64,000 nt of DNA. Source: a virus (lineage: Duplodnaviria > Caudoviricetes). The translations under genes were made by a program, and so were the position numbers. The notes under the pieces were generated by a model. That model saw only the letters and a list, made by a program, of their open reading frames with translations, was not told the DNA's origin and ran no database searches. Positions within the stretch are counted from its first letter, which is position 1. Every line of letters begins with the position of its first letter. Below are positions 4,057-15,134 of this stretch, piece by piece. Where the stretch lies: positions 64,001 to 128,000 of IMG/VR virus record IMGVR_UViG_2936514734_000001; one strand, 5' to 3'.

Positions 4057-4095
4057 AAATTATTATAGACATTTTTCTACATTATATTCTAACAG

Positions 4096-4410
4096 TTACC
4101 ATTTAGGTCCTTTAGGTAAATCCTCAAGCATCATCATGTGTTTTACTTTAGTCTTAGCATGTTTAACTTCTTTTTCAGCCTTTTCCAGATTGTCAATCTT
4201 TTTAGTAAATGTATCAAAATAGGACCCCATCTCCTGTTGGAAAGCATCCTTCGCGTTACCTGATTTCCACGTAGTTAATTCTTCAACTTTGTTTTTAACA
4301 AGTAACTGTTCGGCTCGCAAATCGGAAATGAGGGAGTCTAACTTGCTACTCAAACGGTCAAGATCATCTAATTCTCTTTTATATTTCTCTAAGTTTTTTT
4401 CATCCATCAT
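4096..4410 (-). CDS. Small helical WXG100-like partner of a T7SS substrate
   Basis: ~100 aa, helical, central W-K-S-G; overlaps the lipase stop codon. Confidence 0.65.
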   Translation of the reverse strand: MMDEKNLEKYKRELDDLDRLSSKLDSLISDLRAEQLLVKNKVEELTTWKSGNAKDAFQQEMGSYFDTFTKKIDNLEKAEKEVKHAKTKVKHMMMLEDLPKGPKW

Positions 4411-5546
4411 TTTAAAACATCAGCCTCCACAAACGATGCCGCTGCAGCATTCAAGTTATTTGCCATTCGAGAGGTATCCTCGGCAAACCAACTACTAAGA
4501 TTATGCGCTTGTCCAATTACATCGTTTACGACACCTTCAGATATTTGAATACCATCCAACATTGTTGCATCTCGTTTAAAGGAAGAACAAAGCTCTTCCA
4601 CCCGTGACACATAGCCTTCCAGTTCACTCGCTAAATTAATTAGATGTTCTGGCATAACATTGATTGTTGCCATTTCTCCAGAAGCATATCTAGGGGACTG
4701 TGCTAAAGACTGACCAGTTAGAATGTTTGTTAGAATAGGGTTGTTTAAATTACCTACACCATCAAATTTGAAGTGTTTCATATTATGATAACTTTCTCCA
4801 GCTAGTGAACCCCAAGCTCTTGAAACAGGGTTGTATCTATTCTTTGAGTTCTCAAGATCAAAGGAAGAACCGATGTAGTATGCGGAACCAATATATCTTT
4901 TATAAGGATTAACAGCTCCAGAACTTATAGAATCTTTAGGGTGAATGTAATTTACGATTTGTTTATCAAACTCACCCTTAACTGCTTTCTCTTTTAGATC
5001 TTTAGGAAGCAAGTTGATAACACTTGGTCCGTTAAACGTAACAGCTTCTACATTATTTTTAGCAGCTGCATAAGATGCAATGGACCCAGCCAAAGAGTGT
5101 CCTGTTAATTTAATATTGTAATCAGGATATTCTTTCTTTACATCTTGAACAAGTTTATCTCCCTGACGAAATTGATTCTTCTGATGGAAATCAACGGACA
5201 ACTTCCCGCTATCATATTCAATGTTTAAACCAAGACGATCAACCTTCTTGCCGCGTACAATATAAGTAGCATCGGTTTTTACGTCCGGCCATGCGCGTCC
5301 TTGTGTAACATTCTCTACTGAGTTGGCTTCAGTACCACGATAAGCAATAACTATATTCTTTTTGTTCTTTAAAACCAAGGCATCAAAACCAGTCTCTGCA
5401 TCATGAACTTTAAACTTTTTACTTTTTATAGTTGTCCATTTTTCATTACCATCTTCATAATGGATAGTATAAGATTTTCTAGGTTTGATATCGTAGGCAA
5501 AGCCACTTAGCTCACGAAACGTTCTATCCCTTACATCTGTAATCAT
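4407..5546 (-). CDS. Lipase (class 3/Mbeg1-like) with C-terminal WXG/LXG-like domain; probable T7SS toxin
   Basis: IAYRGTE, GHSLAG, TFNGP motifs; C-terminal INVMPEHL…FVEAD helical domain. Confidence 0.8.
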   Translation of the reverse strand: MITDVRDRTFRELSGFAYDIKPRKSYTIHYEDGNEKWTTIKSKKFKVHDAETGFDALVLKNKKNIVIAYRGTEANSVENVTQGRAWPDVKTDATYIVRGKKVDRLGLNIEYDSGKLSVDFHQKNQFRQGDKLVQDVKKEYPDYNIKLTGHSLAGSIASYAAAKNNVEAVTFNGPSVINLLPKDLKEKAVKGEFDKQIVNYIHPKDSISSGAVNPYKRYIGSAYYIGSSFDLENSKNRYNPVSRAWGSLAGESYHNMKHFKFDGVGNLNNPILTNILTGQSLAQSPRYASGEMATINVMPEHLINLASELEGYVSRVEELCSSFKRDATMLDGIQISEGVVNDVIGQAHNLSSWFAEDTSRMANNLNAAAASFVEADVLK

Positions 5547-5618
5547 AATTGAAGCCTCTCTCCTTATTAGTGTATAATTCTATTATATAAGAATTTCCAA
5601 GAATTTGGAGAGATATGG

Positions 5619-5918
5619 ATGATTAATAAGAAATTGTTTGGCTTTATTTTTATTATTGGAATACTACTTTTAACAGGGTGCGGCAAGGAGGACGACATGG
5701 ATAAGAAAGAGATAGAGAAAACCGCTTCACATGTAGCATCGGAATATATGAAAGTGGAAGAGGATATGGATTTTGTTGTTACTGGTGTAGACTTTTTCGA
5801 TGGTCAAGGAGTAACAACTGTAGCTGTTAATGGACATGAAAAAGGAAAGAAAAAAGAACTAGCAGTTATCATCGATTATGGTGATGATTATAGAGTGCAA
5901 GGGACAGCGGAAAATTAA
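5619..5918 (+). CDS. Small lipoprotein, probable immunity protein
   Basis: Lipobox LLTGC; divergent from the lipase toxin. Confidence 0.65.
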   Translation: MINKKLFGFIFIIGILLLTGCGKEDDMDKKEIEKTASHVASEYMKVEEDMDFVVTGVDFFDGQGVTTVAVNGHEKGKKKELAVIIDYGDDYRVQGTAEN

Positions 5919-6092
5919 TAAGAATAAACGAAAAAAGAACCTTTAGATATTGTATCTTTAGGTTCTTTTTTACTAATAAGAGAGCTGAGTTTATACGAGT
6001 TGGATATTGGAGTTTGCCATGTGTTGTAGTACCTTATCAAATATCCATCCATAATTGTATCCAGTTTTTTAAATAATATACATGGTTATGAA

Positions 6093-8792: not shown

Positions 8793-8876
8793 GTGTTAAT
8801 TTACCATGAAAGTTCTATTTTGTCAATTTTTTTATTCTGTCTCAATAGGATAAGTATTCTTAAATAAATGAGATAT

Positions 8877-8903
8877 AAAAAAGAGCGACCGAAGTCGCCC
8901 AAA
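8877..8903 (-). terminator. UUCG-loop intrinsic terminator next to dif
   Basis: GGGCGAC-TTCG-GTCGCTC-TTTTTT on the - strand. Confidence 0.75.
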
Positions 8904-8980
8904 CGATTTTATTCTACCTATAAACTTAATGCACTCCTATTTTATTGTAGCATAAGCACCCCTCTTTCTTAAAATAAATT

Positions 8981-9008
8981 GGTTCCTATAATATATCTTA
9001 TGTAAACT
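8981..9008 (+). other. dif: dif site (CodV/RipX, XerC/XerD-type)
   Basis: GGTTCCTATAA-TATATC-TTATGTAAACT versus B. subtilis dif ACTTCCTAGAA-TATATA-TTATGTAAACT: 24/28, XerD arm identical. Confidence 0.85.
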
Positions 9009-9076
9009 AGAAAAAGAAATAAGAGAAAAGCTTACCCTTTTTTGAGTAAGCCTACATTATATAAATTCTATAAATT

Positions 9077-10240
9077 TTAATGTTTTACAACAGTTACATA
9101 AGTAAGTTTGCTGACATTATTTGAAGCATCCTTAGCAGTTACATTAATGGTAGTCCCTTTTTTTTGCACAGGGATGTTAACAGAAAATGATCCTTTTGAA
9201 TTTGCTTTTGCGTATCCAATTCTGTTTTTACCTACATTAACAGTTACAGTAGAATTAGCCTCAGCTTTACCAGTTACAACCTTATCATTATCATCTACTT
9301 TATTAACTGTTGGTTTATTAGGTGGAGTAACATCTGACTTTACAACAGTTACATACGTAAGTTTACTCACATTACCCGAACTGTCTTTAGCGGTTACATT
9401 TAGTGTAGTTCCTGCTTTTTGAACAGGAATACTAACCGAGAATGAACCATTTGAATTTGCTTTCGCATATCCAATTCGATTCTTCCCTACATTAACAGTG
9501 ACAGTTGAACCTGCTTCTGCTTTACCAGTTACAACTTTATCGTTATTGTCTACTTTGTTAACAGTAGGTTTATTTGGTGCCACTGTGTCTTTAGCAGCAG
9601 CTTCAAATAAAGTCGAGATTCCATATGCCTCACCAGTTTCACTACTATTTAAATCCATAACAGGTATGTAATATGTACCCGCTTTATTAACTTTATACTC
9701 TTGGACTTCTACTCCATCATCATATTCAGAACCTAAGTACTCTATATATCCATGATCTGAGTAATCATATTCAGTTGCCATAAATAATAAATCCATATCG
9801 GTAGGAGTATCTGTTACTCCACCTACTAATAGAGTACCTTTTCCAGATACGTATACCTTATAAAAATCTATATCGAAAGTATCATTAAATTGTCCAAATG
9901 TCATTCTATCATTTAGGAGTGTATCTGCTATTTTGAAATCATCATTAGGCTCACTCTCGTACATTGGCGACCCGCTACTACCACTAATACTAGCTGCATT
10001 AGATTTATTCGCTGAAAACGACTTTGGAGTTTTTAATGAGTTCAAAGTTTTCTCTTTAAAGTCATTCAGTACACTAGGGCTAATAACGTTATGATTGAGC
10101 GGTTTATCATTTTTCAATTGGCTTTCAATTGCTTTCTTTGAAGCCTCGTAATTGTTGCCTTCTGCTTGAGCTGTACCTACTGATAATGAGGAAGCTAGTA
10201 AACCTACGGACAATAATGAGATAATACCCTTTTTCTTCAT
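9077..10240 (-). CDS. Secreted protein with PPC-like domain and two tandem bacterial Ig-like repeats
   Basis: Signal peptide AQA-E; ESEPND and DIDFY motifs; duplicated DTVAPNKPTVN…VTGKAEA…TVV repeats. Confidence 0.8.
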   Translation of the reverse strand: MKKKGIISLLSVGLLASSLSVGTAQAEGNNYEASKKAIESQLKNDKPLNHNVISPSVLNDFKEKTLNSLKTPKSFSANKSNAASISGSSGSPMYESEPNDDFKIADTLLNDRMTFGQFNDTFDIDFYKVYVSGKGTLLVGGVTDTPTDMDLLFMATEYDYSDHGYIEYLGSEYDDGVEVQEYKVNKAGTYYIPVMDLNSSETGEAYGISTLFEAAAKDTVAPNKPTVNKVDNNDKVVTGKAEAGSTVTVNVGKNRIGYAKANSNGSFSVSIPVQKAGTTLNVTAKDSSGNVSKLTYVTVVKSDVTPPNKPTVNKVDDNDKVVTGKAEANSTVTVNVGKNRIGYAKANSKGSFSVNIPVQKKGTTINVTAKDASNNVSKLTYVTVVKH

Positions 10241-10382
10241 CGAATCTCTCCCCTTAGTTATATGTAACTATCCACTTGCTATGACTATGATACTACTAAA
10301 ATTCCAGCAGAACCACATATTCTCATATTCAAATTTCGACAAAAAAAAGAGCAGCTTAACGCTACTCTTCTTGTGTACACGA

Positions 10383-11213
10383 TTAAGGCATCGGTATAGC
10401 CTGAACCGCCTCTATAAATTGTGGTATAGTAGTTGCTAATGCTGTACCAGCACCAGCTAATCCTGTCACATTAGTTAATGCAGTTGTTGCTCTTCTAATT
10501 AATGAAGGCTTTACTTCCTCACCATTTTCAACTTTTTTAGCTATTTCCTCTACATGATCAATAGCATCTTCTTTCAGCTCTGCATTATCAATATTAGAAT
10601 CTTTTAAAAGCTGAATAAGTTCTTTTGCAATTGATTGTATACCTTCACCTTCATGATTATTATTAGTTTGATTTAATGTAGTATCCCCATATACATCTCC
10701 TTCGTTAGACAGAAAGTTTCCTACAGAAGAATTATTGAATACGTATTTTGCATTTTGTTTTCCTTCAATACCCATTTTTATCGCTTTCTCCTCTAAATAA
10801 GACGTAATATGATCAACTAGTAGATTAACTACTTCTCTATTGAAATTTTTAATCATGTTAACTATCTTTCTGCCCTCACGATATGGAAAAGCAAAATCAT
10901 AATACGACAGATTATTCTCTGTAATATGCTTAAGAAGTTGATAGATATAACTAACTTCTTCATTTTCATCAAATGGAAGATCAAATTTATCTTCGCCATT
11001 TTTTTCTTCAATAATTTTATTAAAGTCATATACTCGCGTGTGGTTCTTTTCAATAAAATCTTTAATGATTGGTTCTTTATCTATTGTGCTAATAAATCTT
11101 TTGGTTAGTCGCAGCGCCTCGTCCATATCAGTTGCTCTGAGCATTTGACCAAAAGCTTTTCTAAAGTTTTTAGATAAAATTTTAAAATCTTCATATGACA
11201 TAACTATTTCCAT
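10383..11213 (-). CDS. Hypothetical protein, translationally coupled to the Zn-ribbon gene
   Basis: TAA-ATG junction at 11216-11211; hydrophobic C-terminal helix. Confidence 0.75.
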   Translation of the reverse strand: MEIVMSYEDFKILSKNFRKAFGQMLRATDMDEALRLTKRFISTIDKEPIIKDFIEKNHTRVYDFNKIIEEKNGEDKFDLPFDENEEVSYIYQLLKHITENNLSYYDFAFPYREGRKIVNMIKNFNREVVNLLVDHITSYLEEKAIKMGIEGKQNAKYVFNNSSVGNFLSNEGDVYGDTTLNQTNNNHEGEGIQSIAKELIQLLKDSNIDNAELKEDAIDHVEEIAKKVENGEEVKPSLIRRATTALTNVTGLAGAGTALATTIPQFIEAVQAIPMP

Positions 11214-11666
11214 TTAATTCACCCCACAATACGGACAGTATGGGCCCGCACTCGCCTTTATTAGAGTAGAAACCTTTGCTTTCTTTAAGCAGCATTGAAA
11301 CTCTACAATATCGTAGTCATTTTGCTCAAAAAGCGGTTGAGGACTGATGCTGGGCTTTAAAGGCTTTCCTGGTTTGAATGTGACATTTTTATTTCCCTTA
11401 AAGATTTTACCAATATCCTTAACGGCTTCATTAAGTAAGTCTATTGCATATTGTTCTGCTTCTGCGTTTGCATTCTCAATAATATCTTCAGTAAGGAACT
11501 CAGAAGGTTCTTGTGGAATTCCACAAGAAGGGCAGAAAATTTGCAGCACATGGTCTTCCTCCACGTCTCCTGGTACAAGCTTAAAACCCTCACTACACAG
11601 GCTACACTCGAAAGAAGAAAAACCATCGTGGTCAGTTTGCTTAGTTATTTCTATTCTTTTTTCCAC
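11214..11666 (-). CDS. Double zinc-ribbon protein
   Basis: CxxC, CPSC, CC, CPYC; SD AGAGGAG fits GTG 11666. Confidence 0.75.
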   Translation of the reverse strand: MEKRIEITKQTDHDGFSSFECSLCSEGFKLVPGDVEEDHVLQIFCPSCGIPQEPSEFLTEDIIENANAEAEQYAIDLLNEAVKDIGKIFKGNKNVTFKPGKPLKPSISPQPLFEQNDYDIVEFQCCLKKAKVSTLIKASAGPYCPYCGVN

Positions 11667-11842
11667 TAACATTTCTCCTCTCTTATACATCAAATATAGA
11701 TTTGCAAAAAGATGCTATATTTCTACAACCTTGGATATATTTACTTATAATTATAGCAAAAAAAAAGAGAGTAGTCGCGACGAACCACTCAAAAACTACC
11801 GATTAGATTAACTTGAGAAATTAATGTGTAGAATAGTATGAA

Positions 11843-11870
11843 CCACATTATGTCATATCTTATGTAAACT
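11843..11870 (+). other. Second, half-degenerate dif-like site
   Basis: CCACATTATGT-CATATC-TTATGTAAACT: XerD arm perfect, XerC arm degenerate. Confidence 0.65.
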
Positions 11871-11895
11871 AGAAAAGGAAATAAAGGAAACCTAC

Positions 11896-12659
11896 TCATT
11901 TCTGATTTAGGATTTCTAAGTGTTTTTGATAGTCTAGATAATATTCTAATGTTCTTTCATATTCATTTGCTTTATTAGCATACTCTAGGTTAATCTTCTT
12001 TTTAATATCATCATTAATGACTAATTCATCATTGTAAATATTTTTCTTTTTCATGTTATTTAGTCTGCTATGATATTGTTTAGCGGAGTTTTCTCCAATT
12101 TTAGTTTTAGTGTGTACATCTGTTAAGTAAGTTGGAAAATTCATAAGTAACCTCCTAGTTAACATAATGTAATTTAAAAAGGAAATCTTCCTGGTCCATT
12201 AACTCGCTGAGGTTCAGGTGCGTAAAAGCTACAATAACCGAAGTGGTAACATTTCATTTTATAAAGAATCACTAAAGCTTTTATTGTATTCATTTTGTCT
12301 TGAAGCCCTTTTCCCTCAGCATAAGAAAAAATATGGCTTTCGACTTCCTTGATCTCTGCTTCTAATTTGATTTTTATATTTTCTTGCATTTCCCTATCTT
12401 TTTTTAGGTACTCATACCATTCCTTCTCTGATTCCTCTTTTGGCTCAGGAGGCATTTCTCTTTTGTTCATAATTTCAGGTACACATATATCTTTTGCATT
12501 AGAATAAATCTTTGCTAAGCTTATTTCGATATACCTTTCGCTATCGACACCAAATTCATGAAAATACGAACATATATTGTCTCTATACTCATTAATTTCT
12601 TCTTTTAGTTTCCTTTTAACTGTTTCTACTATCTCTTTATCTGTATCAAAATCAATCAT
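11896..12659 (-). other. Two hypothetical CDSs (11896-~12144 and 12174-12659)
   Basis: SDs AGGAGG upstream of both. Confidence 0.65.
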
Positions 12660-13764: not shown

Positions 13765-13950
13765 TTAACTATTTTTCAGTCCGGGTTGTGGGTAAGCAGT
13801 GTTGATTTCTGCTAAAGTTTTTAATACTTCATCACTAGAAAACTGTAGTCTCTTCATATACTCCTCAGTATATCTACGTCTCGCTGATGAAGGCTTAGAG
13901 GAAATAACTACAACTTTACCATTATCATACCGTTTTTTCTGAACAGTCAT
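13765..13950 (-). CDS. Small protein coupled to the DUF4062 gene
   Basis: ATGA overlap, SD AGGAGGG. Confidence 0.65.
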   Translation of the reverse strand: MTVQKKRYDNGKVVVISSKPSSARRRYTEEYMKRLQFSSDEVLKTLAEINTAYPQPGLKNS

Positions 13951-15134
13951 GATTGAATCCCTCCTATTAAATCAGCTACAAAGTTTATAAGCAGGATGTT
14001 ATTACTCATTATAGCATATTCCACTTCGTCCTTGTAAGAGTTAGCTTGTAGGTCTGTCCATTTTTTCTCAATTAACGGATAATGAAAACATAATACAAAC
14101 TCTTTGGACTTAATTGTATAGTAAAGCAATTCTTTTGCTTCAGAATAACCTATTTCTCCATTATCACTAGTATAACAATTCACTACATATGAAGTATCAT
14201 CAGACAAATCATACTCTTGAGTTGGTGTTGTTTCACCGCAACAGCCACAAAGCTTCATTTTTCCATTATCTTGTTTGTAAACAGTCATAGCATTACAACT
14301 ACCAATTGTATTTACTTTCTTTTGAGTTCTTGTACCTGGACGTATAAAAATTTCTCCGCCACTTAACTGAACTCTAGCTGTGTTTAAAAACTCTCCCCAG
14401 TCAACTACTTTTCCATTATCTATAAACGATAATAATGAAGTTGTATACTCCTGATACTGTCGCAAGACTTTTGCGGCATCTGCATTTACAGCCATGCTTT
14501 CTTTATGTGGAATCAGCTTGATTCCTTGACCTAAATGATCACTAAAGTAACCATTAATTTTCTGATAAAATTCTGGTGAACGGGATATGATAAGATCCTC
14601 TGTCCAAACTCGTGCACGCTGAACATCAAAAATAAACGCCCACAAAAAAGGATGAAATCTTTTCTCTTTCAACATATCTCTTTGTGCATCACCCAAATTG
14701 TTTTGAATTACTTCCTCAACTATATCCATTGTATAATTAGGTTCGCGATGATTTGTTTCCATATATTCTTTATAGCGTTTGTTTAAAGGTGTCTTAATAT
14801 GCTCGTCATAAACGCGTTTTATTTTTTCGTCAAAGAAAGCGATAACATACTTTTTCTCCTCAATTGCTGTAAAGAATTCTTCATATGTAGGTGTAGTTTT
14901 CGCCTCTTCCCAATACGTTCCAACATAGTTGTTTACAAGCAGGATAAAAATATCACATTCTTTAACCTTCTGTATACAAGTCTCCATTGTGTCATCAGCC
15001 CAAGGGTAAAAATTCTCCTCAAACAACAAAGGCTGATGGCCCGAAGATTCTAAATGTGCTTTTAAATCTTGTCTTAACGGTTTTAGATCGTCATCATATG
15101 CTGAGCTAACAAAAATCTTAGCTGGATTTGGCAT
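13947..15134 (-). CDS. DUF4062 (TIR/NDT-like) domain protein with unknown, possibly GAF-like, C-terminal domain
   Basis: KIFVSS…DL…R, C…VKECDIFILLV, TYEEF…A motifs. Confidence 0.75.
   Translation of the reverse strand: MPNPAKIFVSSAYDDDLKPLRQDLKAHLESSGHQPLLFEENFYPWADDTMETCIQKVKECDIFILLVNNYVGTYWEEAKTTPTYEEFFTAIEEKKYVIAFFDEKIKRVYDEHIKTPLNKRYKEYMETNHREPNYTMDIVEEVIQNNLGDAQRDMLKEKRFHPFLWAFIFDVQRARVWTEDLIISRSPEFYQKINGYFSDHLGQGIKLIPHKESMAVNADAAKVLRQYQEYTTSLLSFIDNGKVVDWGEFLNTARVQLSGGEIFIRPGTRTQKKVNTIGSCNAMTVYKQDNGKMKLCGCCGETTPTQEYDLSDDTSYVVNCYTSDNGEIGYSEAKELLYYTIKSKEFVLCFHYPLIEKKWTDLQANSYKDEVEYAIMSNNILLINFVADLIGGIQS

Follow-up and report, generated by a model that had tools for sequence, protein, structure and literature searches.

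Do CodV and RipX, the Xer recombinases of Firmicutes, shuffle accessory genes, and does a site that retains only a RipX arm recombine? A small pair of dif-type sites in a jumbo phage-plasmid bears on both questions. Modules bounded by dif sites and the elements known as IMEX have been described for Proteobacteria, and the literature we searched, with incomplete coverage, contained none from Bacillaceae. The locus lies in a stretch of 64,000 nucleotides, referred to as the window in the following, which comprises positions 64,001–128,000 of a 239,374-bp element (G000). A preliminary description, made from the letters of the window alone, regarded it as a cassette captured by Xer between an intact and a hybrid dif. 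The locus connects the numerous dif-like sites of Priestia with a temperate jumbo phage and with genes of a candidate defence system. It is also relevant to dif-based marker excision in P. megaterium, where genomes can hold dozens of such sites.

The element and its host

G000 contains long structural-gene operons and, as read from its list of open reading frames, a ParM-like gene. It is syntenic with pBtic235 of Bacillus thuringiensis in the structural genes, in Rtp and in the place of a dif-like site. It is most closely related to contigs from Priestia megaterium (237.7, 241.3 and 188.3 kb) and P. flexa; therefore, its host is almost surely Priestia and not Bacillus sensu stricto, the genus first proposed. 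Among viral contigs, the relatives found were exclusively of the pBtic235 type, the DNA at 7–14 kb of the window had no match in the phage collection, and the matches in GTDB are chromosomal remnants in Peribacillus that lack the locus.

pBtic235 carries its own Xer-type recombinase (PMC8116677), a tyrosine recombinase of 372–375 aa that two relatives encode as well. By contrast, profile searches with PF00589 and PF00239 detected no tyrosine or serine recombinase in the whole of G000 and thus, as the preliminary description had stated, none between the two sites. At 86.0–87.3 kb of G000, the neighbours of the pBtic235 recombinase gene are retained in synteny, while the recombinase itself is missing. 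G000 therefore appears to have lost its own Xer-type recombinase and to depend on the CodV/RipX of its host.

In the dif-like sites of pBtic235-type elements (L005:14762, L008:15703 and L016:22244), the CodV-side arm is divergent, and the flank is conserved and partly palindromic. As these elements also encode an XerS-like recombinase of their own, they possibly possess a private Xer/site pair. Dif-like sites are also found at L006:10632 and in other large Bacillus phages (PJN02, 2S-4, PK-3 and FADO).

A complete dif and its surroundings

The left site (8981–9008, plus strand; GGTTCCTATAA TATATC TTATGTAAACT) has the anatomy of a dif. Its 28 bp consist of an 11-bp CodV arm (8981–8991), a 6-bp spacer (8992–8997) and an 11-bp RipX arm (8998–9008), and it lies near the terminus, at 72,981 of the genome, close to the turn of the cumulative GC skew at ~65–70 kb. 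It is identical to the chromosomal dif of Priestia in 26 of 28 positions and represents the sole match to the dif pattern with zero to two mismatches in G000, which bears out its initial description as near-canonical. It differs in four positions from the dif of B. subtilis, and the runner-up place in the 239-kb genome differs in seven; our conclusions are based on the Priestia dif sites. The RipX arm is unchanged in eight relatives. Judging from these sequence features, the left site is probably the dimer-resolution dif of a Priestia phage-plasmid, on which the CodV/RipX of the host would act.

To the left, the site is preceded by a conserved non-coding block (8826–8980, plus strand), which is common to the dif of Priestia rep_cluster_385 plasmids and to an island; it is 73–87% identical to the counterparts in L001, L004, L029 and L030, and 90–94% to those in phage relatives. 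To the right, it is followed by a flank (9009–9058, minus strand) with a 14-bp purine tract and a terminator-like hairpin (9028–9053; fold z −3.1) for the first gene of the cassette. As this tract recurs in the flank of the right site, it had been taken as evidence for the integration of a circle. However, it is a fixed part of dif in Priestia: it is found behind the chromosomal dif in three Priestia-type genomes (L057–L059), behind plasmid dif sites and at 19 metagenome loci. Because the chromosomal dif is followed by the tract as well, the shared tract is no proof of a circle; it follows Priestia dif generally, and therefore both ends can carry it.

Further upstream in the window, WXG100-like, lipase and lipoprotein genes (4093–5935) are 88% identical to DNA located 2–4 kb past a chromosomal dif of Priestia (L059, L037), which points to exchange between the two termini.

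The right site is a half-site

The right site (11843–11870, plus strand; CCACATTATGT CATATC TTATGTAAACT) has a perfect RipX (XerD) arm and five of six spacer bases. Positions 8993–9022 and 11855–11884 are identical in 29 of 30 bases and 2,862 bp apart, as initially noted, and the two sites share an exact run of 22 bases, which is longer than the runs obtained in all 60 order-3 Markov simulations (15–19). The XerC (CodV) arm, previously considered degenerate, is absent. When scored with a matrix built from 41 Priestia sites, the 11-mer in its place reaches −16.8, a value that 53% of random 11-mers attain as well, while the lowest-scoring true site reaches 1.7. Hence, the right site is a half-site, in which homology to dif begins at 11855 with the second spacer base, and the module is not bounded by two complete Xer sites, as pdif modules are.

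On the other side of the arm, the homology between the two ends is not confined to the 14 bp reported before, but extends over ~50 bp through the terminator-like hairpin. The right flank (11871–11920, minus strand) comprises the purine tract and a terminator-like stretch at the end of an 82-aa gene, with a weak fold (z −0.55). It matches the flank of plasmid dif sites in 41–44 of 51–52 columns, the left flank in 37–38 of 53. The terminator-like stretches at the two ends are homologous, each facing the incoming gene.

Among the four genomes with a junction of the window type, three have a damaged right RipX arm: L019 and L062 carry mutations in it, and L022 has lost it. Since the CodV arm is absent and the RipX arm is decaying in relatives, the right site is a relic and not a working hybrid dif; its polarity is the reverse of that in TLC and the gonococcal genetic island (GGI). 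The junction may also be read as two fused sites, namely the half-site and an overlapping decayed site with the spacer ACCACA; with poor scores (of 478,692 places, rank 754 for the window and rank 100 for L019), this reading was left as a weak lead. Furthermore, the junction (11840–11858) shares a motif of 16 in 19 bases with DNA at 10310–10328, upstream of the first cassette gene; this motif is missing from the other cassette borders.

Cargo genes and right-hand neighbours

The module holds three cargo genes, all on the minus strand, and no replication or transfer genes. It is not set apart by its composition (GC 33–34% versus 30–36%). The first gene (9077–10240) encodes a secreted-type protein of 387 aa with two Big_6 Ig domains (PF17936, E 1.6e-41). 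In several genomes, homologues with 81–83% DNA identity lie 1.7 kb behind the Priestia chromosomal dif, on its RipX side. The Big_6 domains (9084–9579) form a 255-bp tandem repeat of 81% identity, one copy of which is lost in L021. The other two genes are adjacent and match the PADLOC models for PDC-M14, a defence candidate in that collection: PDC-M14B (10383–11213; 276 aa; PDLC04449, E 4.4e-84), a candidate anti-phage defence protein with 28 homologues in Bacillaceae, and its partner PDC-M14A (11214–11693; PDLC04447, E 2.1e-50), a Zn-ribbon protein annotated with 150 aa in relatives. We found nothing relevant on PDC-M14 in the literature covered, from which most subscription papers are absent.

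The cargo genes recur in other combinations in Priestia plasmids and in an integrase-bearing island (L023, L029–L031), and on plasmids, an island and the chromosome they adjoin sites of the dif type. In L029 and L030 (4.5–12.4 kb), a tyrosine integrase is followed by eight co-oriented genes, including PDC-M14, Big_6, DUF6615 and a homologue of the 82-aa gene. This run closes on an inverted dif-like pair, in one case on a plasmid-like contig, in the other beside hut genes on a 4.8-Mb contig.

The 82-aa gene itself (11896–12144, minus strand) has a weak match to Phage_int_SAM_5 (E 0.011), and an alignment search with its protein found no match in metagenome contigs or plasmids. It is followed by a third, inverted dif-like relic (12157–12186, minus strand), with a perfect RipX arm of the plasmid type and a CodV arm that is good once two T are removed. 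This relic forms the left edge of a window-specific orphan gene of 161 aa (12174–12659), precisely where homology to the relatives breaks off; the orphan stands in place of their 129-aa gene. In total, the G000 genome thus has one full dif and two relics, rather than the many sites per replicon of pdif-type systems. A DUF4062/TIR-like protein of 395 aa, encoded at 13947–15134 and kept in relatives, may be a second defence gene near dif.

A slot with fixed borders and changing cargo

In relatives, the stretch from dif to the 82-aa gene proves to be a cargo slot. Its left border is constant, with the same left block and dif; its right border, where seen, consists of the RipX arm, the flank and the 82-aa gene. 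Between them, the cargo amounts to 0.67, 2.9, 3.2–3.5 or 4.4 kb. The three genes of the window are also present in L019, L022 and L062, of which the last shows the right part only, and L021, L025 and L027 have a 161-aa gene in addition to three genes of the window type. L024 has six genes, two more than the L021 type, and in L064 one 160-aa gene fills the slot (0.67 kb). In L036, a dif and an L021-type half-site enclose a 169-aa gene, with more cargo thereafter. In L020, other genes lie behind the same dif; a half-site was looked for there, and none was found. The relatives therefore do not always carry the same genes, which would have spoken against capture (one gene in L064, four in L021, six in L024), and the cargo varies with breakpoints at the sites (L064, L021, L024, L036 and L020), as in pdif modules without a recombinase inside. 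While the search for relatives with different cargo was thus successful, an empty dif was not found among the ~11 related loci.

Two unrelated sequences occur upstream of the right RipX arm, and in both cases dif homology takes over at, or within 1 bp of, the border between CodV arm and spacer. The sixth spacer base covaries between the two sites, with C/C in the window and G/G in L019, L021, L036 and L064. The left flanking block is never exchanged among relatives, in contrast to the DNA to the right of the arm, and the RipX arm is intact in all L021-type half-sites despite differing adjacent bases. Compared with the closest relative, the cargo of the window is 95–100% identical and both flanks 89–94%; window-specific alleles cluster just outside both sites, yet the backbone is mosaic elsewhere, too. 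Gene content also switches inside the slot (L021, L024 and L020), at joints that lack dif relics; homologous or illegitimate recombination is the best account of such later changes.

In rep_cluster_385 plasmids and in L030, the left block, dif and a right-type flank form one continuous piece, which in L030 includes a 28-bp dif core identical to that of the window. An empty site would have the same appearance. The contigs of four sequencing runs (X1, X3, X6 and X7), from which rare forms are dropped, contained neither a joint from ~9008 to 11871 nor the back-joint of a circle; a joint of 10457 to 12158 in the contigs of X1 was discarded, since it had only 30 letters on one side.

A pool of dif-like sites in Priestia

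Four Priestia plasmids contain 10–18 dif-like sites each, compared to none in reversed controls, and 14 Priestia genomes contain between 0 and 88. These sites are clustered in direct orientation, with 33 different spacers in 41 sites, and they lie wholly between annotated genes in 25 of 26 checked cases, usually one to three genes apart. Examples of such arrays are found in plasmids W01–W04 (e.g. NZ_CP140271.1, 97.7–101.5 kb) and in genomes G335, G399 and G404–G406, where the sites bound genes for a macrolide phosphotransferase, VanZ, ferritin, ftsW and GNAT, among others. The pool also includes half-sites, one with a spacer and arm as in the window (L061) and another in L094. The chromosomal dif regions of Priestia have a single site.

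By their sequence, the arrays resemble a pdif-like pool, and dif modules are present in Firmicutes, too; the literature searched, largely without subscription papers, contains no relevant report on pdif or IMEX, or on sites resembling dif, from Bacillus, Priestia or other Firmicutes. In Acinetobacter, only pairs with equal spacers recombined reversibly (PMC9947245). Given that the spacers differ, the same rule would explain the stability of direct arrays.

How the module may have arisen

We consider it probable that the module reflects gene capture by host Xer at the element's own dif, a claim limited by the fact that the module itself now looks frozen. The donors would be those plasmids, islands and chromosome termini of Priestia that bear dif. 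Their DNA would enter through host Xer recombination, either as a circle or through a cointegrate, and would supply a RipX arm, a flank and genes. The resident CodV arm would remain on the left, while the resident RipX arm and flank would be shifted to the right, behind DNA without a CodV arm. The right CodV arm may never have been present, if a RipX-first exchange was finished by replication or RecU, or it may have been deleted later. CodV makes the top-strand cut at the left half of dif, RipX binds both halves, and neither SftA nor SpoIIIE activates the two directly (PMC5357621). In B. subtilis, cassettes that lie between direct dif sites are excised by Xer (PMC4030025). Two complete direct sites would undergo such excision, so that only versions with a dead right site would persist, and the Legionella element LME-1 is stabilised by a damaged downstream dif (PMC9765430). 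The right site of the frozen module would then decay, with spread and reshuffling among relatives mainly by homologous recombination.

Capture is favoured by the only full dif near the skew turn, the lack of a recombinase, identical borders with different cargo, junctions at the border of CodV arm and spacer, the covariation of the sixth spacer base, the empty-type piece on plasmids and the presence of a donor pool. Against it stand the lack of an empty allele among the ~11 related loci and the random sequence in place of the right CodV arm, as ordinary two-step Xer recombination is unable to use the present site. In addition, the in-slot joints without dif relics and the mosaic genome outside the slot show that other recombination is clearly active, and the position of the junction represents two independent cases, biased because they were found through the RipX arm. 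The initial proposal of integrase-free capture at the element's own dif hence stands with respect to the missing integrase, the fixed borders and the junctions, whereas neither an empty site nor a circle was found.

Alternatively, Xer catalysis may have played no part, a reading that we regard as rather unlikely. Dif, flank and terminator together provide ~60 bp of short homology common to many Priestia replicons, so that cargo could have entered through two crossovers, one of them homologous and the other illegitimate, or the junction could have been duplicated, leaving the right copy as a passive terminator with a RipX arm. The extension of homology ~50 bp beyond the arm agrees with this, as do the cargo changes without dif relics, the mosaic backbone, the decay of the right arm and an unrelated island, in which an 82-aa homologue likewise terminates on the flank and RipX arm. 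However, such crossovers would not be expected to place the junctions of two unrelated half-sites at the same border, to make the sixth spacer base covary or to spare the left flanking block while the DNA right of the arm changes. Spacer covariation and the window-specific alleles just outside both sites would also suit a live, integrase-free, IMEX-like cassette: RipX alone would initiate at the half-site, replication or RecU would resolve the exchange, and a 2.86-kb circle would still cycle. The perfect RipX arm and near-complete spacer of the window and the intact arms of the L021 type fit a live cassette, but the damaged arms in most genomes with the window's own junction, the missing CodV arm and the lack of replication and transfer genes make it improbable. 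That the second site is a chance look-alike can practically be dismissed: although ~0.75 exact arms are expected per genome in such AT-rich DNA, the simulations did not reach 22 shared bases, the flank is homologous and the position is conserved in relatives.

Capture at this locus could, in a broader and more doubtful extension, be one instance of a genus-wide, integrase-free cassette system that runs on the dimer-resolution machinery. Direct arrays of dif-like sites, addressed by their spacers, would act together with half-sites that RipX alone can engage for lack of a CodV arm. Genes would thereby pass between plasmids, the chromosome terminus and a jumbo phage-plasmid, which would have abandoned its own Xer and would take up defence genes at its dif.

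Comparison with known systems

Although the module works much as dif modules or a minimal IMEX do, it belongs to neither class, because one site is incomplete, its polarity is reversed, its target is the dif of a phage-plasmid, it carries no genes for its own spread and no circle was found. As in the pdif modules of Acinetobacter plasmids, host Xer sites bound one or a few accessory genes without an integrase; there, the sites mediate replicon fusion and resolution, and spacer identity decides which pairs react (PMC9947245). Unlike these, the sites described here belong to the CodV/RipX system of a Firmicute, the checked Priestia arrays are direct with nearly all spacers different, and the window module combines a complete site with a half-site, at the terminus of a phage-plasmid.

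IMEX such as TLC phi, VGJ phi, GGI and EludIMEX-1 likewise lack an integrase and are bordered by an intact dif on one side and a damaged copy in direct orientation on the other (PMC5357621). However, in TLC and GGI it is the XerD arm that is lost and the XerC arm that remains, the opposite of the polarity seen here, and while IMEX enter the chromosomal dif, the window module consists of 2.9 kb of cargo and occupies the dif of a 239-kb phage-plasmid. As phages or islands, TLC, VGJ and GGI moreover possess their own genes for spread (PMC5357621); the window module has none, and no circle of it was found.

LME-1 of Legionella offers another parallel, with an intact upstream dif, a partial downstream dif and lowered excision, but it is a prophage that uses the single-recombinase XerL system and excises measurably, at ~1% (PMC9765430). 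Finally, the jumbo phage-plasmid pBtic235 (PMC8116677) belongs to the same element family as G000; its site has a different CodV-side arm and flank, whereas G000 combines a host-type dif with the apparent loss of its recombinase.
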